A stretch of 40,586 nucleotides of DNA from a plasmid, in NCBI RefSeq assembly GCF_055900595.2, contig NZ_JBVWEU010000005.1. One strand, written 5' to 3'. Below are positions 5,567-39,108 of this stretch, one piece after another. Below the pieces are notes generated by a model that was not told where the DNA came from, ran no database searches, and was given only the letters and a program-made list of their open reading frames with translations. The translations under genes were made by a program, and so were the position numbers. Position 1 is the first letter of the stretch; the number at the start of each line of letters is the position of its first letter.

Positions 5567-6100
5567 TTACCAGGTCATTACAGGTAATATCGTAGAAATA
5601 ATCTGTGACTTTGTGACCGCGCCGAAATATCTCCCGTCAAATGAAGATGCGCTGCGGTCAGTCATCAGCAACAGTTCTGATTTACCCAACGTGTACACTT
5701 CACGAATGGCGGGCAGTTTACGCCCGCCCGGATCAACACTTAACGGCTTGCTGTAAGGCAATAACTGTCCGTTGACGTAAACACCATCATCACGAAAAGC
5801 AACTTCATCACCTTTAGCCGCTAAAATCCGCTTCATCATCTCGCCATACCCCCCTGGACAAAAGCCGCTGCCGATGTAACCACGCTTCTGTGCCAGTGAG
5901 AAAATAGCCTTTTCAGGCGGGCAGAAAATTACATAGTCGCCCTTCTCTGGCGCTTTCTGGCTGATTTTGTACAAGCCAACAGGGATACTTTTCGTGGTAT
6001 TGATGCGTAACCCGGCGGCATATCCAAAGCCACACACAACTGCACCAATCAATGAAGCCGAAATAACACCAATGGCGGCATAGCGGGTCATTTTTTTCAT
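5567..6100 (-). CDS. traF: TraF pilin-maturation peptidase (signal peptidase-like)
   Basis: 177 aa, N-terminal TM segment, 4-bp overlap with traG stop; position conserved downstream of traG. Confidence 0.75.
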   Translation of the reverse strand: MKKMTRYAAIGVISASLIGAVVCGFGYAAGLRINTTKSIPVGLYKISQKAPEKGDYVIFCPPEKAIFSLAQKRGYIGSGFCPGGYGEMMKRILAAKGDEVAFRDDGVYVNGQLLPYSKPLSVDPGGRKLPAIREVYTLGKSELLLMTDRSASSFDGRYFGAVTKSQIISTILPVMTW

Positions 6101-8212: not shown

Positions 8213-10842
8213 CGACTTCTTCCTTTCGTTGTCCTAACTGAACCGGAAGGGGTAAGTGTGACTGACTCCCCGACTTTAAGATTGCTCAGTCTCCGGGCGG
8301 TGTAATCGCTGACAGGCATCACAACAATTTCATCATCCCGTTTTAGCAGGGCTAACGTTTCCAGCCCGCTTTTACGTTGGCCTGCATACTCAAACAGACC
8401 TTTATCAGTAGAATTATACCCTCTATGTTTCGGTATATCGAACCCTTTAAGGCGTTTTTGCTCACGTTCATTGATATATTTTTCAGCACTACTCAGCGGT
8501 TTCTTAACCTCAGCAGGTGTTGTTATTCCTCCTGCCCCAGCCATATCCCGTCGCAGTTGATCAGCACATTCGGCTGTTTTGTGCTCCAGCTGGTCAGAAA
8601 CATTACCCTGCAATAACACTTCACTTCCTCCGGCGATGCGAACCATACCGAGTTCGGACATTGCTCGCAGACGGTTTTTTGCTGTGGGCGGCGGCTGGCG
8701 TCCAGGTCGCGCAACGTTGGGCTTACTATGTCCTCGTTCGCCATTTGGTTCGGCTGCTCGACTTCTCCCTGTACGGGTGTCATCACTCCTTCCTGGCTGG
8801 CTTCCTGCTGTAGTAACAGCATCGCCTGAGCCAATTCGTCTTCTGCTGCTGCTGGTTCCATATCCGTTTCCGGCATCAGCGGAGGTGCTTCGTCCTGTGA
8901 CTCCTGGCTCATTTGCTCCAGTAGCATTGCCATTACCGCTTCGTTCTCGTCCTGCATCGGTTCGTTCTGTTCCGGCATATCTTTGTCGTCTTTGTTCATT
9001 GTCTTTTCCCTCATTCATTCGGATAAAGTTTTCAATCCGATCTCTGGTTGCGTAAGGACCGACAAACCAGGATTTCTTTTCGGTGTCCCACATGGCTCCG
9101 GCTTGCCGGGCCTTGCCTCTTTGCTCAAAGGGGATGTGGATGTATTCACGCTCGCGGGCCGCTTTCTTAGCCAGAATTTGCCTCAACTTTTCCAGTTCAG
9201 GATCGGCAAATGACACGTCCAGCTCACGCGCAGCGGCTACAGCTACAATGCGTTTTTTAAATTCAAAACTGCCGTTAACGGTGAGTTTGTCTCCGTAACG
9301 GTGTTTAGCCATCAGCAGTGCGGCATGAAGACCGTCATCACCAGCATCACGTGATACATCCAGACGTTTACCACCGTCACGGATAGCACTCTCTCCCACG
9401 CGGTAAATAATCGTCCCTTCCTTCGTTACGCTGTCCGGTTTCAATCCAGGGATACGGCCATCTTTTTTGACTTTATCGCCATGCAGAATGTTGGCCTCTT
9501 TACGAGCCCGTTGTGCATTCCGCTGGCGTAAAATTTTTAGCGCTTCATCATCACCACCTGCGGCTTTGAACTGCAGCCAGTCAGCCCATGTACGGCGTTT
9601 ATGAATGTCATAAGCTGCCTGCCGGTCTTTTTTATAAATGGCATTTGCCCGTTCAAGTTCTTCCCCAAGCGCCTTACTTGCCAGACCATATAAATGGCGT
9701 TTATTCACACCCGGTCCTTTCAGTAACTTGATAGCTGCCCGCTTTAACCGGCCTGTCCTTTTGGCATTTTCAATGAGGCGATCACGTTTAACCTTTGCCA
9801 GACGCAGCGCTTCGTTACGGGCAGCAGTAAGCCGTTGCTGTTCACTCTGGTAGCGCCCGTAAAGAACTGAGGTACTTGCACCCTGAGAACCCAGCGGTTT
9901 GCCCTCATAGCGTTTACCACTGTTAATCGACATAACGGGAATCTCCCCAAGGTGAACCTGTCGGTTTTCACGAATTGGTGGGGGGCGTTCTCCGGGCCGC
10001 TTAACATGTACAGCTGAACCGAATCGTTGTTTAATCGCTTCTGGGGAAAGTCTGGAAGGTTTCGTGTCGGGTATGGAAGACTCAAACGAGCCTAATTTCT
10101 TTTCAAGCGCTGCTCGGGACAGAGAGCGATCTACAGAGCTGGCTTTTACAGCAAGGCCATCGGGACCAGTAATAACGAATCCATTCCCTTTCTGGCGTAA
10201 CTCAAGCCCATTCTGGCGCATTGCCTGATGTAACTCTTGCCAGTTAGCCGCTCTCTTTAATTGATCTGCGCACTCCCTCTTTATCCAGCCAAGCAAACTT
10301 TCTCTGCCGGAATGCCTTTCCATATCTGCCGCATTATTTTCGGATCGCGTCTTACTTGCCCGGTGATTATCGCTTTCAAGGCCAAATTCCTTTTCGAGTG
10401 CCATACATACCGCTGAACGGGTTTTGTAATCGTTGTAGGGGGTATGAATGTTGTAAGTTTGTGGATGGATTTTATTTATAGCGATATGGATATGCACATT
10501 ATCAGTGTCGTAATGAACAGCACTGACACGCTGATGATCGGCATACCCCATAGCCGCGCAGATACGTTCTTCTACAGCATCCAGAACCTCCTGTGACGGT
10601 TTTTCTCCAGGACGAAAGGAAACGATAAGGTGATAGGTCTTGTCGCCCGCTGCGCGCGTATTACGCCGTTGTGTAGGCTCAATCTCATAACGGGCCGCAT
10701 CAAGGATATTTTCATGATGACAGTTCGTAACCTTAATAGCACCCACGCGCTCCTGTTTGTTTTGGGGATCTTGCACATACTTGGCAAGCTCAACAAAACT
10801 ACTCTTTTTGACATTTCGCATTGGGATGTGACGCGAAATCAC
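8209..10842 (-). CDS. traI: TraI relaxase (MOBP family) with long Gly/Ser/Arg-rich C-terminal extension
   Basis: N-terminus MISRHIPMRNVKKSSF...VTNC and HYDTDNVHIHIAINKIH match the IncP TraI signature; start codon is GTG (plus-strand CAC at 10840-10842). Confidence 0.9.
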   Translation of the reverse strand: MISRHIPMRNVKKSSFVELAKYVQDPQNKQERVGAIKVTNCHHENILDAARYEIEPTQRRNTRAAGDKTYHLIVSFRPGEKPSQEVLDAVEERICAAMGYADHQRVSAVHYDTDNVHIHIAINKIHPQTYNIHTPYNDYKTRSAVCMALEKEFGLESDNHRASKTRSENNAADMERHSGRESLLGWIKRECADQLKRAANWQELHQAMRQNGLELRQKGNGFVITGPDGLAVKASSVDRSLSRAALEKKLGSFESSIPDTKPSRLSPEAIKQRFGSAVHVKRPGERPPPIRENRQVHLGEIPVMSINSGKRYEGKPLGSQGASTSVLYGRYQSEQQRLTAARNEALRLAKVKRDRLIENAKRTGRLKRAAIKLLKGPGVNKRHLYGLASKALGEELERANAIYKKDRQAAYDIHKRRTWADWLQFKAAGGDDEALKILRQRNAQRARKEANILHGDKVKKDGRIPGLKPDSVTKEGTIIYRVGESAIRDGGKRLDVSRDAGDDGLHAALLMAKHRYGDKLTVNGSFEFKKRIVAVAAARELDVSFADPELEKLRQILAKKAAREREYIHIPFEQRGKARQAGAMWDTEKKSWFVGPYATRDRIENFIRMNEGKDNEQRRQRYAGTERTDAGRERSGNGNATGANEPGVTGRSTSADAGNGYGTSSSRRRIGSGDAVTTAGSQPGRSDDTRTGRSRAAEPNGERGHSKPNVARPGRQPPPTAKNRLRAMSELGMVRIAGGSEVLLQGNVSDQLEHKTAECADQLRRDMAGAGGITTPAEVKKPLSSAEKYINEREQKRLKGFDIPKHRGYNSTDKGLFEYAGQRKSGLETLALLKRDDEIVVMPVSDYTARRLSNLKVGESVTLTPSGSVRTTKGRSR
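8523..9014 (-). CDS. traH: TraH-like acidic protein encoded in an alternate frame inside traI
   Basis: 163-aa highly acidic ORF (E/D/Q-rich), same strand as traI but a different frame; RP4 has traH nested in traI in the same way. Confidence 0.45.
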   Translation of the reverse strand: MREKTMNKDDKDMPEQNEPMQDENEAVMAMLLEQMSQESQDEAPPLMPETDMEPAAAEDELAQAMLLLQQEASQEGVMTPVQGEVEQPNQMANEDIVSPTLRDLDASRRPQQKTVCEQCPNSVWFASPEEVKCYCRVMFLTSWSTKQPNVLINCDGIWLGQEE

Positions 10843-10856
10843 GATGCCCCCAGGAT

Positions 10857-10869
10857 TTTAGCAGCTAAA
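10857..10869. promoter_or_regulatory. KorB operator (OB) TTTAGCAGCTAAA between traJ and traI
   Basis: 13-bp palindrome in the 28-bp gap between the traJ stop and the traI GTG start. Confidence 0.7.
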
Positions 10870-13240: not shown

Positions 13241-13253
13241 ATTAGCCGCTAAG
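13241..13253. promoter_or_regulatory. degenerate KorB-operator-like palindrome (ATTAGCCGCTAAG) next to a perfect one
   Basis: 11 of 13 matches to TTTAGCSGCTAAA, 1 bp from the site at 13255. Confidence 0.4.
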
Positions 13254-13254
13254 T

Positions 13255-13267
13255 TTTAGCGGCTAAA
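13255..13267. promoter_or_regulatory. KorB operator (OB) TTTAGCGGCTAAA
   Basis: Perfect 13-bp palindrome matching the RK2 OB consensus TTTAGC(C/G)GCTAAA. Confidence 0.8.
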
Positions 13268-14451: not shown

Positions 14452-14948
14452 GTCGGTGTTACTCCTTGTGTTATCATCAACCGTCTGTATTGAGATAGGG
14501 CTAACTGCTATTTTTAAGTTGAATCGGCAACTGATTACCCAACTACTCTTTAACCATCATCCAGGTATTCTCCGGCCCTATGGATAAATGCCGTTAAAAA
14601 TGCGTTTGTGGGCTTCTTTCAGGCGCTGTTTGTCGAAAGGACCAAGATAGGGCTTTCTTCCAGCTACGATAAGTTAAGAGCTATTGTGTCACGCTCAATC
14701 CCTCATCCCAGCCAGGTTGATAAGGATGTCAGTACTCTGATACAGATATTGGTGTTTTTGCCGCTCATTCCTAATGTTGTTTTGCATGTTGAGTATGGTT
14801 CTTAACTCTCCCTGCGTCACCTTACTCATAAGTAACATCACCGGTAATGATGCGTTTTTAGGAAATAGCCGCCAGGAACCATGAATTCTCTGCCCTGACG
14901 GAACTACATAGCCCTCAGGTTAAATTTTGTTTAGCTACATCTATACAT

Positions 14949-14961
14949 TTTAGCGGCTAAA
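14949..14961. promoter_or_regulatory. KorB operator (OB) TTTAGCGGCTAAA
   Basis: Perfect 13-bp palindrome. Confidence 0.8.
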
Positions 14962-14983
14962 ATTATGCAATAAATAATATTAA

Positions 14984-15010
14984 TAAAAAAAATCCCGCGA
15001 CTGCGGGATT
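14984..15010 (-). terminator. rho-independent terminator after korB
   Basis: Hairpin AATCCCGC-GACT-GCGGGATT with a T-run on the minus strand, 22 bp past the korB stop. Confidence 0.6.
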
Positions 15011-15031
15011 CTGAGCGGAAATTGATACCTT

Positions 15032-16045
15032 TTATCCTTCAATAAGGCAAATTATTTTCACGTTTTCGAGATTTAGCTCTTCTTCTACACCAGTTGAATC
15101 AAACTTAATCCAGGCAAGCCCTTCTTCACTTGGGCGCTTGGTCAGGATAAGGCGGCCCTGCTCCCCCAGGTACTCAACGATAACAATAGCCTTTTTGAAT
15201 TTATCAGGATCGGTTTCCTTTTCTGGCGTCTTACGGACCTTATCGGTCACATCGTTATCATCGTGGCCGTCCGTATCATCTTCGGCAGCTTCCGAATCGG
15301 TACGGCCATTGAAGGCGTCAATGGTGTCTGGATCACGCTTGCTGGATTCTTTTTCGTCCAGGAACTCACGGAAAACTTTCACCGCACTACGGGTAATGTC
15401 TTCACCCTCGTTCTCTTCAAGCAGTTTTTGAACTTCTTCCGGGTCTTGCTTGTAAGCCGTTACCAGCTCATTAACTACGGTAACATCACGGATTGAACCT
15501 TTATTAAAAGCATCTGCTATACAATCCGGCAGGTCCAGCAACGCTGCGTGTTGGGTTACGAACGCTGGCGACTTGCCAAGCCGTTTAGCAATCTGAGATT
15601 TTGATACCCCCTCAGCCAGTTTGCGGCCAATGTGTACGGCAATTTCACGCGCCGTCAGGTCATTACGCTGGATGTTCTCAATGACCTGATCATCGTCGCT
15701 ATAGTCATTATCGATAAAAGCGGGAATTTGTTTCTTCCCGGCCACTTTACTGGCTCGCCAGCGACGTTCTCCATGGTTAATAATATAGCGCCCCGCTTGC
15801 TCCGGGTTCTCGCGAACGGAGACAGGCATTTTCACACCACGCGCTTTAATGGTATCAGCCAGCTCCTTAATGGATTCCTCTGAGAACCCTGGGTTGTCCT
15901 GCTTACGCGGTTGTTCAGGATCGGGATCAATCGCATCAACGTCCAGCATCAGTGGTTTACCCTCAGCACCTGCAGACGCATCAAGAAAGTCGGAGAGATC
16001 ACCAACGGTATCAAGGCCAAGGCCGGAAGAATTTTTTTTAGTCAT
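15032..16045 (-). CDS. korB: KorB (ParB-family partitioning protein and global repressor)
   Basis: 337 aa, ParB-like, acidic linker, follows incC with start/stop overlap; its cognate operators are scattered across the window. Confidence 0.85.
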   Translation of the reverse strand: MTKKNSSGLGLDTVGDLSDFLDASAGAEGKPLMLDVDAIDPDPEQPRKQDNPGFSEESIKELADTIKARGVKMPVSVRENPEQAGRYIINHGERRWRASKVAGKKQIPAFIDNDYSDDDQVIENIQRNDLTAREIAVHIGRKLAEGVSKSQIAKRLGKSPAFVTQHAALLDLPDCIADAFNKGSIRDVTVVNELVTAYKQDPEEVQKLLEENEGEDITRSAVKVFREFLDEKESSKRDPDTIDAFNGRTDSEAAEDDTDGHDDNDVTDKVRKTPEKETDPDKFKKAIVIVEYLGEQGRLILTKRPSEEGLAWIKFDSTGVEEELNLENVKIICLIEG

Positions 16046-16809
16046 TATGCAATCTCCATCTTAGTAAAAACATGATAGGCCAGTGCTCTCATTTCCTGGC
16101 TGGCTTTACGTGCTGCTGTCTTCTTGATTTTCCAGACAGGGACATGTGAAGCCAGTGCATCAGCAATGCTGCTTCGCAACCCGACAGACACAGGAACCAT
16201 TAACGTAGGGTAGGCCGTCTGCAGCTCCTGCAGGTGGTTTACATGGCGAGGATTGCGACCATCTACCTTACTTGGAACCATACCAATAAATTCCAGCTTG
16301 CTGTTCATTTTGCGTTTCACCTGGGTGAAGGTGGTCAGCATTTTTTTAATACCCTGAATTGAGTACACCTCAAGCTCAATAGGGCATACCACAAAATCAG
16401 CGCTCGCCAGCGCAACTATAAGCGCATTGTTAACCGTAGGCGCAGTATCAATCAGGCAGACGTCAAAGCCACTGTCCGCCAGCTGCTGCAGGTTATGGCG
16501 GAACTGCTTCACCATTTCCGGCAGATTTAATTTTTCTACGTTTGCCAGTTGAATATCTGACTCAATGAGAGAAATTCCGCTCTCAGGCATTTGAGTAAAG
16601 CGAGTTGGCTCGATCTCGCCCCACATTTCATTCGCTTTAATGCCGGACGAGAACTGTTTCAGGGTAAAAGAGGCGTTGCCCTGGGTATCCATATCGATTA
16701 CAGCAACCCGCTTGCCTCGTTCTGAAAAATCAAATGCCAGATGAACCAGGGTGGAAGTCTTGCCAACACCACCTTTTTGATTTGCTGTAACCAATACTTT
16801 CATAGCCAT
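16045..16809 (-). CDS. incC: IncC (ParA-family partitioning ATPase)
   Basis: 254 aa, deviant Walker A KGGVGKTS typical of ParA/MinD. Confidence 0.85.
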   Translation of the reverse strand: MAMKVLVTANQKGGVGKTSTLVHLAFDFSERGKRVAVIDMDTQGNASFTLKQFSSGIKANEMWGEIEPTRFTQMPESGISLIESDIQLANVEKLNLPEMVKQFRHNLQQLADSGFDVCLIDTAPTVNNALIVALASADFVVCPIELEVYSIQGIKKMLTTFTQVKRKMNSKLEFIGMVPSKVDGRNPRHVNHLQELQTAYPTLMVPVSVGLRSSIADALASHVPVWKIKKTAARKASQEMRALAYHVFTKMEIA

Positions 16810-16811
16810 CG

Positions 16812-17156
16812 CTATTCTTCCTGTTTACGTTTTGCCTCGTCAGCCCACTTTTTAACAATGAAAGCCTGCCGCTCCGGTAACACTACTTCAATACGCACAA
16901 AACCGTCAGGTACTTCTTGTTTATAGGCATCCCACACTCTGTTAACTGCCTGAGAAACAGCCCCGCGAGAAATATCCAGCGTTTCAACAAAATATTTCTG
17001 CGGTCTTCCTTCAACCAGTACGCCGTAAGCGATATCAAGCGTTTGCTTACCAACATTCAGGCTTCGGGTAACTCTTGCAAATACCTCATTAGTCAGGCGT
17101 TTTTTTTCATTGCCCGTTTTGGCAACATGCGGATCATTATTATTAACAGTCGTCAT
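16812..17156 (-). CDS. korA: KorA-like repressor
   Basis: Track ORF starts at 17213, which would place the start inside the KorA operator; the internal ATG at 17154-17156 has an SD and gives ~114 aa. C-terminus carries the PDGFVRIEVVLPERQAFIVKKW motif also seen in TrbA and KlcB. Confidence 0.7.
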   Translation of the reverse strand: MTTVNNNDPHVAKTGNEKKRLTNEVFARVTRSLNVGKQTLDIAYGVLVEGRPQKYFVETLDISRGAVSQAVNRVWDAYKQEVPDGFVRIEVVLPERQAFIVKKWADEAKRKQEE

Positions 17157-17214
17157 AAATTTACTTCCCGGTTCAACGCCTTTAACTAGACGCCTTAATG
17201 ACACCGCAAACAAA

Positions 17215-17226
17215 GTTTAGCTAAAC
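17215..17226. promoter_or_regulatory. KorA operator (OA) GTTTAGCTAAAC
   Basis: Perfect 12-bp palindrome identical to the RK2 class I KorA operator, upstream of korA. Confidence 0.8.
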
Positions 17227-17246: not shown

Positions 17247-17259
17247 TTTAGCTGCTAAA
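17247..17259. promoter_or_regulatory. KorB operator (OB) TTTAGCTGCTAAA
   Basis: 13-bp palindrome with central T, 20 bp from OA; OA plus OB pairing as at RK2 korAp. Confidence 0.75.
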
Positions 17260-20679: not shown

Positions 20680-20886
20680 TTATTTCCCGACAAATTCTGG
20701 ATACAGCAACCACCCAATAACAATGATACATGCAATATCAAAAAATAGAGAACAGTATAAATAAATACCTTCTGCTTTAATAAATTTTGTGAAGTGTGAA
20801 TTAAACAAATCAGCACTTATATTCTCTTTGAGATCTTTATTCATTTTCTTGGCGTCAATCATCGCGTCAATTGACTTTATTAGCAA
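20680..20886 (-). CDS. small AT-rich hydrophobic ORF (possible membrane peptide)
   Basis: 68 aa, hydrophobic C-terminus, low GC; no convincing SD checked. Confidence 0.25.
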   Translation of the reverse strand: MLIKSIDAMIDAKKMNKDLKENISADLFNSHFTKFIKAEGIYLYCSLFFDIACIIVIGWLLYPEFVGK

Positions 20887-21366
20887 TCAAAATGGAACAT
20901 GGAGCCACCAATTTAGAACATTCGAAAAATGATCCAATTTCGCATAACGATTCTAAGACGATCCCTTTAAAGCCCTTCTTTCTGGCGTAAACCCTCCGGT
21001 TCTGTAGCGCATCAGTATTTTGAAGTGTGCTTGGTATCTCTAGCGAGTATCTATGCCCGGCAAAGGTACTTTGCCGAGAGCGAAGCGGCCTATGCTCGCG
21101 TAGCGAGTGAGTCATCTTTGGGGTGAAGACCGCTTGCGGTCGAGGGGCTTGCCCCTGGGGGGATGGGAGGCCGCTTGCGGCCGGGAGGGATTGAGAAGGG
21201 GGGTTTCCCCCCTTCGGGGGCGTCGTTAGACGCGGTTAAAAATAAGGTTAATTTTTTTGGTTAAAAGTGGTTAAAGGATCGGTTAAAAGATCGGTTAAAG
21301 ATCTGGTTAGAGGGGTGTGCAAAACTCAATTAAAGCCATGATTATTAAGGGGAAAAATATCCACAT

Positions 21367-23024: not shown

Positions 23025-23036
23025 GTTTAGCTAAAC
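23025..23036. promoter_or_regulatory. KorA operator (OA) GTTTAGCTAAAC
   Basis: Perfect 12-bp palindrome between divergent ssb-trfA and trbA. Confidence 0.8.
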
Positions 23037-23055: not shown

Positions 23056-23068
23056 TTTAGCCGCTAAA
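23056..23068. promoter_or_regulatory. KorB operator (OB) TTTAGCCGCTAAA
   Basis: Perfect 13-bp palindrome 20 bp from OA. Confidence 0.8.
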
Positions 23069-23147
23069 ATTTACATCGAGGCGTAAGCGTATCGTGTACA
23101 ACCTAATTTTTTTTACTAACATCCTCAGACTTCTTGAAGAAAGAGAC

Positions 23148-23498
23148 ATGACAAAGCAGGAACTATCCCAAAAAGCTGGGGTTTCAATCTCTTTTTTGTC
23201 GGACCTAACAAATGGAAAAGCGAACCCATCTTTAAGGGTGATGGAATCCATTGCTAATGCCCTCGATGTAGCCCTTCCCGTTCTCCTTGAAACAACTGAC
23301 CTTGATGAACACAGTCTTATGCTTATGGCTGATGGAAAACCTGTAAAAAGTCTCCCTCCCGGATATGTAAGAGTGTCCGTAATTCTTTCTGAACAGCAAG
23401 CCTTTCGGGTACGAATGTGGAGTGAACATACACGTCAGAAGTTAGAGCAAGAAGCCAAAGCAATGCTGGAGATCATGCAAGAAAAGAAAAACAGTTAA
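23148..23498 (+). CDS. trbA: TrbA-like repressor (XRE HTH plus KorA-type C-terminal domain)
   Basis: Track ORF starts at 23094; the ATG at 23148 (MTKQELSQKAGVSISFLSDL...) starts the HTH. C-terminal motif PPGYVRVSVILSEQQAFRVRMW. Confidence 0.7.
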   Translation: MTKQELSQKAGVSISFLSDLTNGKANPSLRVMESIANALDVALPVLLETTDLDEHSLMLMADGKPVKSLPPGYVRVSVILSEQQAFRVRMWSEHTRQKLEQEAKAMLEIMQEKKNS

Positions 23499-23532: not shown

Positions 23533-23545
23533 TTTAGCCGCTAAA
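23533..23545. promoter_or_regulatory. KorB operator (OB) TTTAGCCGCTAAA in the trbB promoter region
   Basis: Perfect 13-bp palindrome between trbA and trbB. Confidence 0.8.
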
Positions 23546-30062: not shown

Positions 30063-31457
30063 ATGGCAGAACAAGATAAAATGTCCCCCGACGCGTCTCC
30101 TGGCGTCGCAAACAAAACTGGTGTACGCCGCGTTAATAAAAGACCAATGTACATTGCTATTGGTGGCTTCGCTTTATTCTGCATTCTCGTGGCGTACATT
30201 GCCAATAAACGAGCCAACCAAGGCATGTCAAATACGGCAGAAACAACTATTCAGCGTGGGAGCAGCCGAGATACCTCGGCAATGGCAATGGACGTTATGG
30301 GAGGAAGTACCTCCGGCATTATTGAAGCCCCAACAGCACCGTCAGAAATTCCGACACAGGATAATAAAACCCAACAGAGCACGAATTATACATCGGTCCC
30401 CATTGTTCCAGTAGCTGATCCAGATCAGCCCCCCGTTCCGCCACAATCGGTAACGTCACGGTCAAACGATCCAGAAGCAGACCAGATTCGCCGCAATAAA
30501 ATGCGTGATTTTATTGAAGCTGTAAAAGCAAAAACAGAAGTCAATTTGCCTAACCAACTAGGACGCTCGAGTACTACAGGTAATACACCACAAACCCGCG
30601 ATGAAATGCTGCAAGAAATTGCTAACGTTCGCCGTCAGATGGAACAGAACAACGCTGGCGATGCAACTGCAAGTTACGACGCTCAGGTTCAGAGAATCCG
30701 GGCTTCAATGAATGGCGTCACAGATAGCAATAGCGATACAGGTATGCAATTGGCATCAGTGGGTGGCGTATCCGTTTCTCATAATGACATCAACCAGTTC
30801 GGTAAGAAAGGGCAGGGTGACAGGTGGTTACTGGATGAACAAATTTCAGCACCACATAGCCAATACGAACTTCGTGCAGGTTGGGTCATTCCTGGCGTCA
30901 TGATTAGTGGCATTAACTCGGATCTTCCAGGGCAGATTATTGGTCAGGTTGCTCAGGACGTTTATGACTCAGCAACAGGCAAATACCTTCTTATTCCTCA
31001 TGGAACTCGTGTGATAGGTACATATTCAAGTGATATTACCTATGGTCAGGAAGGGGTCATGATTGCCTGGCAACGTCTAGTGTTCCCAGATGGAAAAGCT
31101 CTTGATTTAGGTTCCATGCCGGGAGCAGACATGGCCGGTTACTCTGGTTTCCGAGATCAGGTTAATAACCATTACTTCCGCATTTTTGGCAATGCCTTAC
31201 TGCTATCTGGTATCACCGCGACAATTGCTTATTCTCAGGATCGTAACCAAAACAATAACAACTCGAATCAAGCTCCGAACATGAGCAGTGAAATGAGTGC
31301 AGCGCTGGGTCAGGTATTCGGCCAAGCTATTGCACAGGTTGTACAAAAAAACCTGAATATCTCACCTACGCTCGAAATTCGACCGGGTTATCGCTTCAAT
31401 ATAATGGTTACTAAAGACTTAGCATTCACAAAACCTTACCAAGCCTTTGATTACTAA
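30063..31457 (+). CDS. trbI: TrbI (VirB10-like)
   Basis: 464 aa, N-terminal TM segment, Pro-rich linker, conserved C-terminal domain. Confidence 0.85.
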   Translation: MAEQDKMSPDASPGVANKTGVRRVNKRPMYIAIGGFALFCILVAYIANKRANQGMSNTAETTIQRGSSRDTSAMAMDVMGGSTSGIIEAPTAPSEIPTQDNKTQQSTNYTSVPIVPVADPDQPPVPPQSVTSRSNDPEADQIRRNKMRDFIEAVKAKTEVNLPNQLGRSSTTGNTPQTRDEMLQEIANVRRQMEQNNAGDATASYDAQVQRIRASMNGVTDSNSDTGMQLASVGGVSVSHNDINQFGKKGQGDRWLLDEQISAPHSQYELRAGWVIPGVMISGINSDLPGQIIGQVAQDVYDSATGKYLLIPHGTRVIGTYSSDITYGQEGVMIAWQRLVFPDGKALDLGSMPGADMAGYSGFRDQVNNHYFRIFGNALLLSGITATIAYSQDRNQNNNNSNQAPNMSSEMSAALGQVFGQAIAQVVQKNLNISPTLEIRPGYRFNIMVTKDLAFTKPYQAFDY

Positions 31458-31469
31458 TAGGGGAAGACG

Positions 31470-32240
31470 ATGAATACACGTTTCGTTTTAGCCGCTAAAA
31501 AAGCGTTACTAGCTTCCTTCGTGGCGTCAATCATGGCCCTACCTGCGAAAGCTGGTATTCCTGTTATTGATGCTACTAATGTGGTGCAGACCACAATCAG
31601 CGCTGTCAATAACGTTCAGGCTGTGGCTAAACAGATCCAACAGTATCAGACGCAGTTGCAACAATATGAAAACATGCTGAGAAACACAGTCGCACCTGCG
31701 GCCTATATATGGGATCAGGCCAATTCAACTATCAACAAATTATTGCAGGCACAGGACACTCTTAATTACTACAAAAATCAGGCCGGGAGTCTTGACTCAT
31801 ATCTAAAACGTTATCAGGACATTAATTACTACCGTTCATCGCCATGCTTTAACAGTAATGTTGAATGCACTGCAGATGAAATTAGCGCACTACGTAAAGC
31901 TGAACAAAATAACTCTGAGGCTCGTAAAAAGGCCAATGACGCTGTTTTTAAGGTTCTCGATGAACAGCAAGAAACACTGCAAAGAGATGCAGATAACCTT
32001 GCTGACTTACAAACTCAAGTAACTGGAGCACAGGGGCAAATGGAAGCTATTCAGGCCGCTAACCAGCTTGCCAGTGCGCAAACAAACCAGTTACTGCAAA
32101 TCCGCTCGCTTCTAGTTGCCCAGCAAAACGCTGCAACTACACTGGCGCAGGCTCAGGCCGATAAAGAGGCCCAGCAAGCGGCTGCATCAGAAACTTTTAG
32201 GGCAGGGACTTATACCAAAAGCCCCGCTCAATCTTGGTAA
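31470..32240 (+). CDS. trbJ: TrbJ (VirB5-like)
   Basis: 256 aa, signal peptide, coiled-coil; codons 5-10 carry a KorB operator. Confidence 0.8.
   Translation: MNTRFVLAAKKALLASFVASIMALPAKAGIPVIDATNVVQTTISAVNNVQAVAKQIQQYQTQLQQYENMLRNTVAPAAYIWDQANSTINKLLQAQDTLNYYKNQAGSLDSYLKRYQDINYYRSSPCFNSNVECTADEISALRKAEQNNSEARKKANDAVFKVLDEQQETLQRDADNLADLQTQVTGAQGQMEAIQAANQLASAQTNQLLQIRSLLVAQQNAATTLAQAQADKEAQQAAASETFRAGTYTKSPAQSW
31487..31499. promoter_or_regulatory. KorB operator (OB) TTTAGCCGCTAAA inside the trbJ coding sequence
   Basis: Perfect 13-bp palindrome encoding part of the TrbJ signal peptide (FVLAAKK). Confidence 0.7.
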
Positions 32241-32252
32241 GGTGGTACTCCT

Positions 32253-32426
32253 ATGAAATATATCATTCCTCTCATTCTGTCGGCGTTTTTTATCACTGCT
32301 TGCGACCCAAAAACCGATCCCAACCAGGTTGATTGCAATAAGTCAGTATCAAAGATGACTGACCAGGAAAAAACGCAATGTGGTAAATCAGGCGAATTTA
32401 CAAAAAGCCCCGAAAAGAAATGGTGA
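32253..32426 (+). CDS. trbK: TrbK-like small lipoprotein (candidate entry-exclusion protein); below the ORF-track size cutoff
   Basis: Hand-translated 57-aa ORF MKYIIPLILSAFFITACDPKTD... with lipobox FITAC, between trbJ and trbL as in RP4. Confidence 0.55.
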   Translation: MKYIIPLILSAFFITACDPKTDPNQVDCNKSVSKMTDQEKTQCGKSGEFTKSPEKKW

Positions 32427-32430
32427 CAGA

Positions 32431-33975
32431 ATGAAATTCAGGCATCTAATTTATCCTTGCTTATCTGTGTTGCTGATATTAATCAGCACACAGGCACAGG
32501 CTGCGCCATTAGATAGTGCTGGGTTACTTGATGATATCCTTAAGCGCTTTGCAAATGTTGCCAGCACCTGGGCTGGAACCATACAAAATTACGCGACCTG
32601 GATATTTTGGTCATTAGCGGTAATTTCAATGGTATGGACATTCGCAATGATGGCAATGCAGGGCGAAGGATTATCGGCAGCTCTTGCGGAAGTAGTTCGT
32701 TTTTTTGCTGTGTTAGGTTTTTTCTTCTATCTGCTAAAAAACGGCCCGGCAATATCGGTAGATATTCAGGATTCATTACGTCAACTCGCGGCTAATGCTT
32801 CTGGTTTATCAAAATCATTCTCGCCTTCGGGCATTGTAGATATAGGGTTTGATATCGTATCAAGAGTCGTTGACCAGTCTTCTATTTGGTCCCCGGCAGA
32901 CTCCACTGTCGGCTTGATTTTAGCCGGAGTTATTCTATGCGTATTAGCACTTGTCGGTGTGAATATGCTTCTTCTGCTGATTACCGGCTGGATTTTAAGT
33001 TACGGCGGTATTTTCTTACTCGGTTTTGGGGGGTCTCGTTGGACTTCCGATATTGCCATTACATACTTCAAAACAGTTCTAGGAATTGCCCTGCAGCTGT
33101 TCACAATGGTTCTAATTGTTGGTATTGGAAAATCCTTCATAGACCAGTATTACCAGGCAATGGGCGATGACGCAGTACAAATGAAATCTATGTTTGTAAT
33201 GCTTGTAGCCTCAATTGTTCTTTTGGTTCTTGTTAATAAAGTTCCTCCTATGGTTGGCAGTATTGTAGGCGGTGCTTCAATGCAAGGCATTGGTGGCTTT
33301 GGTGCCGGTGCAATTATTGGGGCTGCAGCTGCAGCAGGAGCCGCAATAGCAGCAGCTGGCGCTGCTGCGGCAGCAGGTGCTGCAAATGCTGCCGGAGGTG
33401 CATCAGCACTTAAAGCGGCATTTGAATCGGCACAAGCAGCGATGGCCGAAGAGTCTAGTACTGGTAGTAAAGGCGGTTCAGGTGGAGGATTTGGCAGTGG
33501 GGAGGATACCGGTTCTGTAGATACTTCTGGAGGACAACCATCAGGCGGTTCCGGTGGTTCGTCTGCAGAGAACAGTACAGGTAGTTCCAGTGGAGGAAGC
33601 CAGGGCTTTGCTTCATCATTCTCACGAGCTGGCCGCATGGCTTCGCATATGGCGAATAGTTTGGCTAACGGCCTGGCTGCACGCAATGCAGCCAAGCATG
33701 ACTCAAAAGTCAGAGCGGCAAGAGACATCATTGCACAAACTCCAGGTGGAAAGCTCGCTTCTCAAATCCGTTCGCAAACTGTTGAACGTCAATCGAACAA
33801 CACAGAAGAATCTTTTGGCTACGGGAGCATAACAACAAGTAACAAGTTCAACGGCGACAGTCTTGGAGGGGAGGAGCAAACAACGACTCAAACAGAAAAT
33901 ACTGGTTCTATAGATACACAAACATCACAAAGTGGTGATGAATACGAACAATTTAAAAACAAGTCAAAGTTCTGA
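32431..33975 (+). CDS. trbL: TrbL (VirB6-like) with Gly/Ala/Ser-rich C-terminal tail
   Basis: Track ORF 32380..33975; start moved to the internal ATG at 32431 (MKFRHLIYPCLSVLL..., signal-like) to avoid overlap with trbK. Multiple TM segments. Confidence 0.8.
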   Translation: MKFRHLIYPCLSVLLILISTQAQAAPLDSAGLLDDILKRFANVASTWAGTIQNYATWIFWSLAVISMVWTFAMMAMQGEGLSAALAEVVRFFAVLGFFFYLLKNGPAISVDIQDSLRQLAANASGLSKSFSPSGIVDIGFDIVSRVVDQSSIWSPADSTVGLILAGVILCVLALVGVNMLLLLITGWILSYGGIFLLGFGGSRWTSDIAITYFKTVLGIALQLFTMVLIVGIGKSFIDQYYQAMGDDAVQMKSMFVMLVASIVLLVLVNKVPPMVGSIVGGASMQGIGGFGAGAIIGAAAAAGAAIAAAGAAAAAGAANAAGGASALKAAFESAQAAMAEESSTGSKGGSGGGFGSGEDTGSVDTSGGQPSGGSGGSSAENSTGSSSGGSQGFASSFSRAGRMASHMANSLANGLAARNAAKHDSKVRAARDIIAQTPGGKLASQIRSQTVERQSNNTEESFGYGSITTSNKFNGDSLGGEEQTTTQTENTGSIDTQTSQSGDEYEQFKNKSKF

Positions 33976-35083: not shown

Positions 35084-35247
35084 TTTTTGCGTCTAGCGTC
35101 TAAAACATGCTAATGCTGGTCGTGTCGTTATGCCTCTTTTTTGCTTTGTTCTGGCGTATTAAGGGCGGGGAGGGACCATTCCTCACCCTTTAATAAAAGA
35201 AGTTAGAAACCAAAACATTTATACGTTTGTTATGCATTATTAAATAA

Positions 35248-37012: not shown

Positions 37013-37025
37013 TTTAGCCGCTAAA
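37013..37025. promoter_or_regulatory. KorB operator (OB) TTTAGCCGCTAAA
   Basis: Perfect 13-bp palindrome. Confidence 0.8.
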
Positions 37026-39095: not shown

Positions 39096-39108
39096 TTTAG
39101 CCGCTAAA
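39096..39108. promoter_or_regulatory. KorB operator (OB) TTTAGCCGCTAAA
   Basis: Perfect 13-bp palindrome 12 bp after the stop of the RHH-HTH gene. Confidence 0.8.

Follow-up and report, generated by a model that had tools for sequence, protein, structure and literature searches.

The 13-bp palindrome that lies at the start of trbJ in the window (the whole stretch of DNA analysed here, 40,586 bp in length) is, on the evidence of its sequence and position, the ortholog of the KorB operator catalogued in trbJ of RK2/RP4, and it is evidently held by purifying selection at the DNA level, with the encoded peptide following the DNA. By analogy we consider it probable, at roughly 70%, that this operator (OB) acts as a promoter-distal site for the binding of KorB and the loading of its CTP clamp, and not as a local operator of trbJ, trbK or trbL. 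The observation is real and at the same time ordinary, being that of an already known RK2-type operator, here in another IncP-1 subgroup.

The trbJ palindrome and the plasmid that carries it

The features found at the start of trbJ are as follows.

31470..32240, + strand: trbJ, encoding a VirB5-type mating-pair-formation protein of 256 aa
31470..31553, + strand: predicted TrbJ signal-peptide codons, M1-A28, with cleavage before GIPVID, from sequence pattern and alignment
31487..31499, no strand: KorB operator (OB) core TTTAGCCGCTAAA, read in trbJ as T-TTA-GCC-GCT-AAA, that is (V)LAAK
31486..31500: extended perfect 15-bp palindrome TTTTAGCCGCTAAAA, with 7-base arms, equal to the site at trbBp

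The core at 31487-31499 is a perfect match to the 13-bp inverted repeat TTTAGC(C/G)GCTAAA that forms the OB consensus, and this match, together with the presence of copies far above chance and of an ortholog in RP4, argues strongly for the identification of the palindrome as a KorB operator that was made in a preliminary description of this DNA. The product of the trbJ ORF is 100% identical to the RefSeq 'P-type conjugative transfer protein TrbJ' of plasmid pSTEC2018_607-e, and its codon register (M1 N2 T3 R4 F5 V6 L7 A8 A9 K10 K11) places the palindrome on the last base of codon 6 and the whole of codons 7-10. The earlier placement in codons 6-10 is therefore sound, with codon 6 involved through its third base only, while the peptide quoted for it, FVLAAKK, corresponds to codons 5-11, a trivial imprecision. 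The TrbJ N-terminus, MNTRFVLAAKKALLASFVASIMALPAKA followed by GIPVID, has the pattern of a signal peptide, with a basic N-region (R4, K10, K11), a hydrophobic core and A-K-A ahead of GIPVID, and the GIPV with which the mature protein starts is conserved in all aligned homologs. The OB-bearing codons of trbJ are thus predicted to encode part of a signal peptide, and the operator does lie, as had been claimed, inside the predicted signal-peptide codons.

The window is a complete circular plasmid of ~40.6 kb, both ends of which abut on the reverse complement of the Escherichia coli plasmid pSTEC2018_607-e (NZ_CP075702, 40,792 bp); the two are 99-100% identical, with poor alignment and a difference in length at window positions 20681-21077. 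According to the RefSeq annotation of pSTEC2018_607-e, the IncP-1-type backbone is complete, and includes the following genes.

trb and replication genes: trfA, ssb, trbA, trbB-trbD, trbF-trbN
tra genes: traC to traM
Regulation and stability genes: korA, incC, korB, kfrB, kfrC, kleE

The trbI-trbK segment of the window (30800-32400) is 99.8% identical to that of pCFSA664-2 (CP033354), which has been assigned to the low-GC 'clade II' of IncP/P-1, a clade of Enterobacteriaceae only (Hayakawa et al., PMC9499019). The G+C content of the window ranges from 40 to 51% and is about 45% for the plasmid as a whole, and by these marks it is a low-GC enterobacterial clade II IncP/P-1 plasmid. Plasmids of this clade carry mcr-1, blaKPC and blaIMP in Enterobacteriaceae (PMC9499019).

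The proteins expected to act at the operator, and their partners, are encoded in the window itself.

15044..16057, - strand: korB, a ParB-family CTPase, 61% identical to RP4 KorB
16057..16815, - strand: incC, the ParA partner of KorB, immediately upstream of korB
16824..17168, - strand: korA, the clamp-locking co-repressor, with F at the position of RP4 Y84
23094..23498, + strand: trbA, the second KorB co-repressor, with F kept at the position of RP4 F104

The window KorB retains the residues aligned to T211, R240 and F249 of RP4 KorB, the first two of which are reportedly the residues that contact OB, and it retains the CTP-binding GxRRxR motif, its HGERRWR aligning with HGARRYR in RP4. It matches the KorB structures 8QA8 and 1R71 with E-values of 1e-91 and 8e-63 respectively, both the CTPase and the DNA-binding domains being covered, and also matches structures of ParB, Spo0J and Noc. 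A role for F249 of KorB has been described, as has the locking of KorB by the aromatic residues of KorA and TrbA (RP4 Y84 and F104; bioRxiv 10.64898/2026.05.27.728120). The trbJ OB is thereby parS-like, in that a cognate ParB-family protein with a CTP motif and its ParA partner are, to judge from their homologies, encoded in cis. It resembles the parS sites of ParB-CTP systems in being a short palindrome for a ParB-family CTPase with an adjacent ParA (IncC), in having dispersed copies that tolerate an intragenic location (chromosomal parS sites are often inside genes) and, by analogy, in its presumed clamp-loading role (PMC11790492); it differs in that KorB is also a global co-repressor, acting via KorA and TrbA.

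KorB operators of the window and of RK2/RP4

The window contains eight perfect matches to TTTAGCSGCTAAA, where 100 shuffles that preserve dinucleotides give 0.00, and when up to two mismatches are allowed there are 14 matches against 1.3 expected. These 14 comprise the eight perfect sites, three with A or T as the centre base, and three weaker ones. The principal sites, with their RP4 counterparts, are listed here.

5813..5825: OB inside traF (- strand), the second fully intragenic site, read as (I)LAAK; RP4 46307, same place in traF
10857..10869: OB with centre A at the traJ/traI junction; RP4 50708; likewise in pXFAS01 and the Neisseria plasmid
13255..13267: OB in the convergent spacer between traM and kfrC, with a 2-mismatch copy 14 bp upstream, at 13241
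14949..14961: OB upstream of kfrB, a kfrAp-like position
17247..17259: OB with centre T at korAp (= RK2 OB1); RP4 59440; KorA operator partner at 17215-17226
23056..23068: OB in the trfAp/trbAp divergent region (= RK2 OB10); RP4 18135; KorA operator partner at 23025-23036
23533..23545: OB between trbA and trbB, the trbBp position (= RK2 OB9); RP4 18586
31487: OB in trbJ; RP4 26687
35092..35104: degenerate OB (2 mismatches) just after trbN; RP4 30611 (the trbN/trbO OB)
37013..37025: OB in the accessory/stability region, flanked by two hypothetical genes
39096..39108: OB in the convergent spacer between a hypothetical gene and hha

The nearest OB upstream of the trbJ site is that of trbBp at 23533, which is 7.95 kb off. 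The spacing of OBs around the circle is no more even than random (largest gap 7954 bp, where random placement gives 9908 bp on average; P = 0.25), and an argument from even coverage therefore lacks statistical support.

The RP4 sequence used for comparison (CP152305, assembled from three pieces) contains exactly 12 OB-like sites, ten of them perfect and two with one mismatch; for RK2, 12 KorB binding sites have been described (Kostelidou & Thomas 2000, as cited in PMC3199767). The window OBs match RP4 sites position by position at traF, the traJ/traI junction, korAp, trfAp, trbBp, trbJ and after trbN, and codons 8-12 of RP4 trbJ hold a perfect OB in the V-L-A-A-K frame. RK2 OB1 is the site at korAp (PMC3199767), and OB9 and OB10 are those at trbBp and trfAp respectively (PMC7314908); by ordinal count from these three anchors we infer that the trbJ site would be RK2 OB8, and in the open-access literature we found no statement of which numbered RK2 OB sits in trbJ or of its role. 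The trbJ sites of the window and of RK2/RP4 are alike in having an identical 13-mer, in the same gene and frame and at the start of the signal peptide, and in sharing a cognate KorB family with conserved DNA-contact residues and the same OB map around the backbone. They differ in that the window TrbJ is about 57% identical to that of RP4 and is encoded by a low-GC clade II plasmid, and in that the OB starts 17 nt after the ATG in the window and 23 nt after it in RP4. The preliminary description did not make this connection with the catalogued RK2/RP4 operator.

Conservation and coding of the trbJ operator

We compared the start of trbJ in 13 further elements, whose TrbJ proteins are 38-64% identical to that of the window. 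A perfect OB in the LAAK frame is present in ten of these, namely RP4 (alpha), pJP4, pAKD1, pYKBG036, pIJB1, pHP-42, pYKBR041, pTE_C_2, a Pseudomonas bubulae plasmid and a GIsul2-type copy in pAB3; with the window there are thus 11 OB-bearing lineages, all with the exact palindrome, which cover alpha, beta and other IncP-1 subgroups, clade II and one GIsul2 copy. The OB starts 14, 17, 20 or 23 nt after the trbJ ATG across these 11 lineages, indicating that whole codons have been gained or lost ahead of the site. Given the peptide, and with codon frequencies taken from the trb genes of the element concerned, the OB codons have a probability of 8e-3 for the window, as against 1e-5 to 2e-4 for the plasmids of 60-66% GC, where TTA accounts for 1-5% of Leu codons. 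The comparison of trbJ N-termini that had been proposed as a check on the operator thus finds the exact palindrome kept in relatives despite unfavourable codon usage, and the contention that this DNA is constrained as an operator besides its coding is upheld, the OB codons being improbable given the peptide yet exact in 11/11 OB-bearing lineages.

The elements that depart from this pattern are also informative as to the peptide. Xylella pXFAS01, a Pasteurella plasmid and the Neisseria gonorrhoeae conjugative plasmid have neither an OB in trbJ nor LAAK at the N-terminus of TrbJ, and LAAK is likewise absent where trbJ is OB-less in Pantoea and Yersinia loci, so that TrbJ does not need that peptide. 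Four clade II plasmids (about 91-100% identical) retain the palindrome intact although synonymous differences flank it; in a Salmonella diarizonae relative a single substitution (Ala to Thr) affects the trbJ OB, and in a Pantoea relative the trbJ OB is thoroughly decayed and the trfAp and trbBp OBs are kept. In a neighbour-joining tree of mature TrbJ, pXFAS01 nests among the OB-bearing lineages, and its missing trbJ OB is therefore a loss. These cases show the site to be dispensable in nature, having been lost in pXFAS01 and decayed in Pantoea relatives.

The notion that a trbJ OB is found wherever KorB is proved false, as pXFAS01 and the Neisseria plasmid each have korA/incC/parB and six perfect OBs; neither has an OB in trbJ or at trbBp.

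A broader survey used a TrbJ profile scan of one genome per species (GTDB r220), which yielded 80 loci. Any centre base was accepted as a match, because three of the window OBs, including that at korAp, have A or T there. The loci were distributed as follows.

61/80 loci: perfect OB in frame at the TrbJ N-terminus
4/80 loci: perfect OB in the spacer immediately upstream of trbJ
6/80 loci: OB with one mismatch
9/80 loci: no OB

A perfect trbJ OB shows a modest association with other OBs in the same locus (52/7 against 7/5). The case that the preliminary description had named as refuting, that of the peptide kept with synonymous changes that destroy the palindrome, is seen in only two of the 80 loci, L071 (GCT to GCC) and L080 (TTT to TTC), and neither of these has another perfect OB. 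Selection is taken to act on the DNA because the exact OB is kept with rare codons and loss of the palindrome comes almost always with a change of peptide.

The location of the site within trbJ is best understood from a simple coding rule. When the OB 13-mer is translated in all frames, two contain TAA or TAG and the sole open frame is T-TTA-GCS-GCT-AAA, or Leu-Ala-Ala-Lys, and because the OB is palindromic the rule holds on both strands; an intragenic OB must therefore encode LAAK after a codon ending in T. The OB of traF follows this rule in both plasmids, reading ...MMKRILAAKGDEV... in the window and ...MMKRVLAAKGDEV... in RP4. Since it is translatable only as LAAK, the trbJ OB is hosted where the TrbJ signal peptide is tolerant, in its N-terminal part, and the rule explains why the intragenic OBs fall there and within a conserved motif of TraF.

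Function of the trbJ operator

A scan for sigma-70-like promoters drew a blank on both strands of 30900-32600, where shuffled sequence yields 3.1, and likewise around trbJ of RP4, and no KorA operator GTTTAGCTAAAC lies near the trbJ OB, the perfect sites in the window being only those at 17215 (korAp) and 23025 (trfAp). The promoter-proximal OBs at korAp, trfAp and klaAp have the same palindrome and bind the same protein, but lie about 32-33 bp from a KorA operator (the pairs in the window being 17215/17247 and 23025/23056), whereas the trbJ OB is accompanied by neither a KorA operator nor promoter-like sequence. It thus lacks both marks of a promoter-proximal co-operator, a promoter ~40-190 bp downstream and a KorA operator ~32-36 bp away, and the suggestion that it provides promoter control for trbK and trbL finds no support in either plasmid. 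Promoter candidates of the OA or OT type come no closer than about 8 kb, at trbBp.

KorB of RK2 binds OB and, with CTP, closes into a clamp that slides over kilobase distances, and KorA or TrbA captures and locks the sliding KorB at promoters (PMC11790492; bioRxiv 10.64898/2026.05.27.728120). This CTP-dependent sliding-clamp model supersedes the long-range looping that had been suggested for the trbJ site (PMC11790492; bioRxiv 10.64898/2026.05.27.728120). Extending the RK2 work to the window plasmid, a dimer of its own KorB would bind the trbJ OB, CTP would close the dimer into a clamp, and the clamp would slide off along the DNA. The trbJ OB would then be one of about a dozen dispersed loading points, populating the middle of the 11-kb trb operon with KorB, and the loaded KorB would both serve IncC-driven partition and be open to capture by KorA or TrbA at promoters, with long-range repression as the outcome. 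The regulatory part of this role is an extrapolation, because the promoters are ~8 kb off and sliding has been shown, in reporter assays, over ~1-1.5 kb.

The constant closeness of the OB to the trbJ start, including in island spacers, could point to a local role, in which KorB bound there would control a secondary promoter, within 3' trbI or just upstream of trbJ, that serves trbJ-trbK-trbL, for example for constitutive entry exclusion. The OB is always near the trbJ start, within codons 5-12 of the gene in plasmids and, in islands L036, L067, L073 and L091, in the spacer that directly precedes trbJ; L098 has a second OB upstream of trbJ, with TTGACA following 2 nt later, and trbJ-trbK-trbL and the OB move as a module in PIME/GIsul2-like islands. 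The window also has a TATAAT at 31400-31405 in trbI, for which the best -35 candidate is TCGACC at a spacer of only 15 nt. We nevertheless think such a role unlikely, given the outcome of the promoter scan in the window and around RP4 trbJ and the want of a nearby KorA operator; in L067 and L091, moreover, the OB is flanked by the preceding stop codon and the ribosome-binding site, so that no promoter would fit downstream of it, and closeness to the trbJ start could equally have been inherited from an ancestor in which the OB took the only tolerant position of a packed operon. The roadblock raised in the preliminary description, in which KorB bound within the operon would hinder polymerases that started at trbBp and so lower expression from trbJ onward relative to trbB-trbI, would suit a site inside a long transcription unit, and repression by KorB from an operator set apart from the promoter has been reported (Bingle 2005, as cited in PMC11790492). 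In a small sample the trbJ and trbBp OBs also co-occur, both being absent from pXFAS01 and the Neisseria plasmid despite KorB and six other OBs. It is improbable all the same: repression by KorB on its own is weak, RNA polymerase transcribes through ParB-DNA complexes (PMC11790492), and the zygotic-induction ratio of RP4 declines gradually, reaching ~1 by trbH/trbI upstream, with no step at trbJ (PMC7314908).

Two further readings lie at the level of the protein and of the mRNA. LAAK is conserved wherever the palindrome is present, as it would be if the TrbJ signal peptide needed these residues and the palindrome were a by-product or a matter of shared ancestry; this is effectively refuted by the choice of codons against local usage (TTA being 1-3% of Leu codons in the high-GC plasmids, with a joint probability of about 1e-5 per lineage), by the unrelated N-termini of OB-less TrbJ proteins and by those islands in which the OB is kept in a spacer, shifted outside the coding sequence, while the remainder of the signal peptide varies freely, and we give it almost no credence. 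It is similarly hard to credit that the inverted repeat, 17 nt downstream of the AUG, forms a hairpin through which translation of trbJ or the stability of its message would be tuned: the single base at the centre prevents a full stem, the RNA of 31455-31520 folds no more stably than shuffled sequence (z = -0.77) and leaves the arms unpaired with each other in the minimum-energy structure, and the same 13-mer recurs in non-transcribed and convergent spacers. Promoter-distal loading of KorB is thus the reading that we favour for the plasmid site.

KorB operators in IncP-dependent islands

More than half of the 80 trbJ loci are islands integrated next to guaA and not plasmid trb operons. Their gene order is Int, [OB], a divergent gene, AlpA, RepA or RPA, [OB], NikA/TraJ-like, [OB], TraI-like relaxase, TrbJ with OB, TrbK and TrbL, and these guaA-linked islands match GIsul2 and the 'IncP island' elements (PMC5704250) and the PIMEs (bioRxiv 10.64898/2026.01.12.698999). 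PIMEs need IncP helper plasmids for excision and transfer, and the preprint that describes them never mentions KorB or its operators and states helper sensing to be unexplained (bioRxiv 10.64898/2026.01.12.698999).

The islands keep the OB at trbJ and one to three more, after int, upstream of the traJ-like nikA and at the nikA/traI junction. As in IncP-1 plasmids, the 13-mer and its frame at the trbJ start are the same and there are copies at the nikA(traJ)/traI junction; the islands differ in that no korB is detected and in that a few loci have the OB in the spacer upstream of trbJ. No KorB homolog was detected in any of the 80 loci (tblastn, E<=1e-3), and any KorB that acts on an island must therefore come from the helper plasmid. 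The conservation of perfect OBs where no korB is detectable suggests that helper KorB acts on the islands in trans. A fuller version of this idea, which we put forward tentatively and do not ourselves expect to hold in full, is that the OB and trbJ-trbK-trbL form a portable unit kept under purifying selection by IncP-parasitic islands, with helper KorB acting in trans as a helper-sensing input, a silencer or a centromere handle, and that the trbJ OB of the plasmids is the ancestral copy. If this were true, a centromere handle would let an excised, replicating island ride the IncC/KorB partition system of its helper.

For the window plasmid itself the result is confirmatory, and it indicates that clade II IncP/P-1 plasmids run the KorB/KorA/TrbA control and partition circuit of RK2 down to individual operator positions. 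The trbJ palindrome can be destroyed by synonymous recoding, and thus offers a clean genetic test of promoter-distal KorB sites. The OBs of helper-dependent islands in which no korB was detected suggest, in addition, a concrete candidate for how such islands perceive IncP plasmids.

Operators elsewhere on the plasmid

The single translatable frame through the KorB operator reads LAAK, and besides the trbJ copy one further perfect operator lies entirely within a gene:

5813-5825, KorB operator within traF (minus-strand gene), the other fully intragenic perfect operator

Its context is KR(I/V)LAAKGDEV, and RP4 traF has an operator at the same place (position 46307 of the RP4 record). An operator is also found within traF of pXFAS01.

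Because three otherwise perfect operators in the window (10857, 17247 and 18676), that of the korA promoter among them, have A or T at the centre in place of C/G, the central position seems to be free in this lineage. The only tandem pair of operators on the plasmid spans 13241-13267, at the 3' end of traM and in the convergent traM/kfrC spacer, and consists of a degenerate operator (ATTAGCCGCTAAG) 14 bp upstream of a perfect one; the RP4 counterpart is located between kfrC and kfrB. The kfrB-korB interval (14462-15044) has no annotated kfrA gene, in agreement with the reported lack of kfrA in clade II plasmids (PMC9499019); an operator at 14949 remains in this interval, as does a KorA-operator-like sequence with two mismatches at 14929. 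The sole sizeable difference from the near-identical plasmid pSTEC2018_607-e is one of about 200 bp in length at 20681-21077, in a segment that contains internal repeats and lies between a klcA-like antirestriction gene and trfA; this segment is presumably the oriV iteron region.

Tra2 sites in pXFAS01 and a Neisseria plasmid

Both pXFAS01 and the Neisseria gonorrhoeae conjugative plasmid encode korA, incC and parB homologues and contain six perfect operators each, and neither complete record has an operator at either Tra2 position, the trbB promoter or trbJ. The two Tra2 operators may be gained or lost jointly, albeit in a small sample.

Operators in guaA-adjoining islands

Among loci L019-L098, the islands of PIME/GIsul2/'IncP island' type are inserted adjoining guaA and carry int, alpA, repA, nikA/traJ, traI and trbJ-K-L. 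They have two to four perfect KorB operators at conserved places that include the start of trbJ, as in two of the islands:

L047: operators at 2614, 7944 and 10003
L023: operators at 5891, 6303, 9200 and 10009

No KorB homologue was detected in these loci by tblastn at E<=1e-3. The 2026 PIME preprint (bioRxiv 10.64898/2026.01.12.698999) makes no mention of KorB, and describes the means by which PIMEs sense their IncP helper as unknown.

Four islands (L036, L067, L073 and L091) retain the operator in a spacer rather than in codons, at about 9915-9965 in each locus, between the stop codon of the upstream gene and the trbJ ribosome-binding site; island L031 has a one-mismatch copy of this spacer operator. 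The operator keeps its place beside trbJ also in loci in which it does not overlap the codons.
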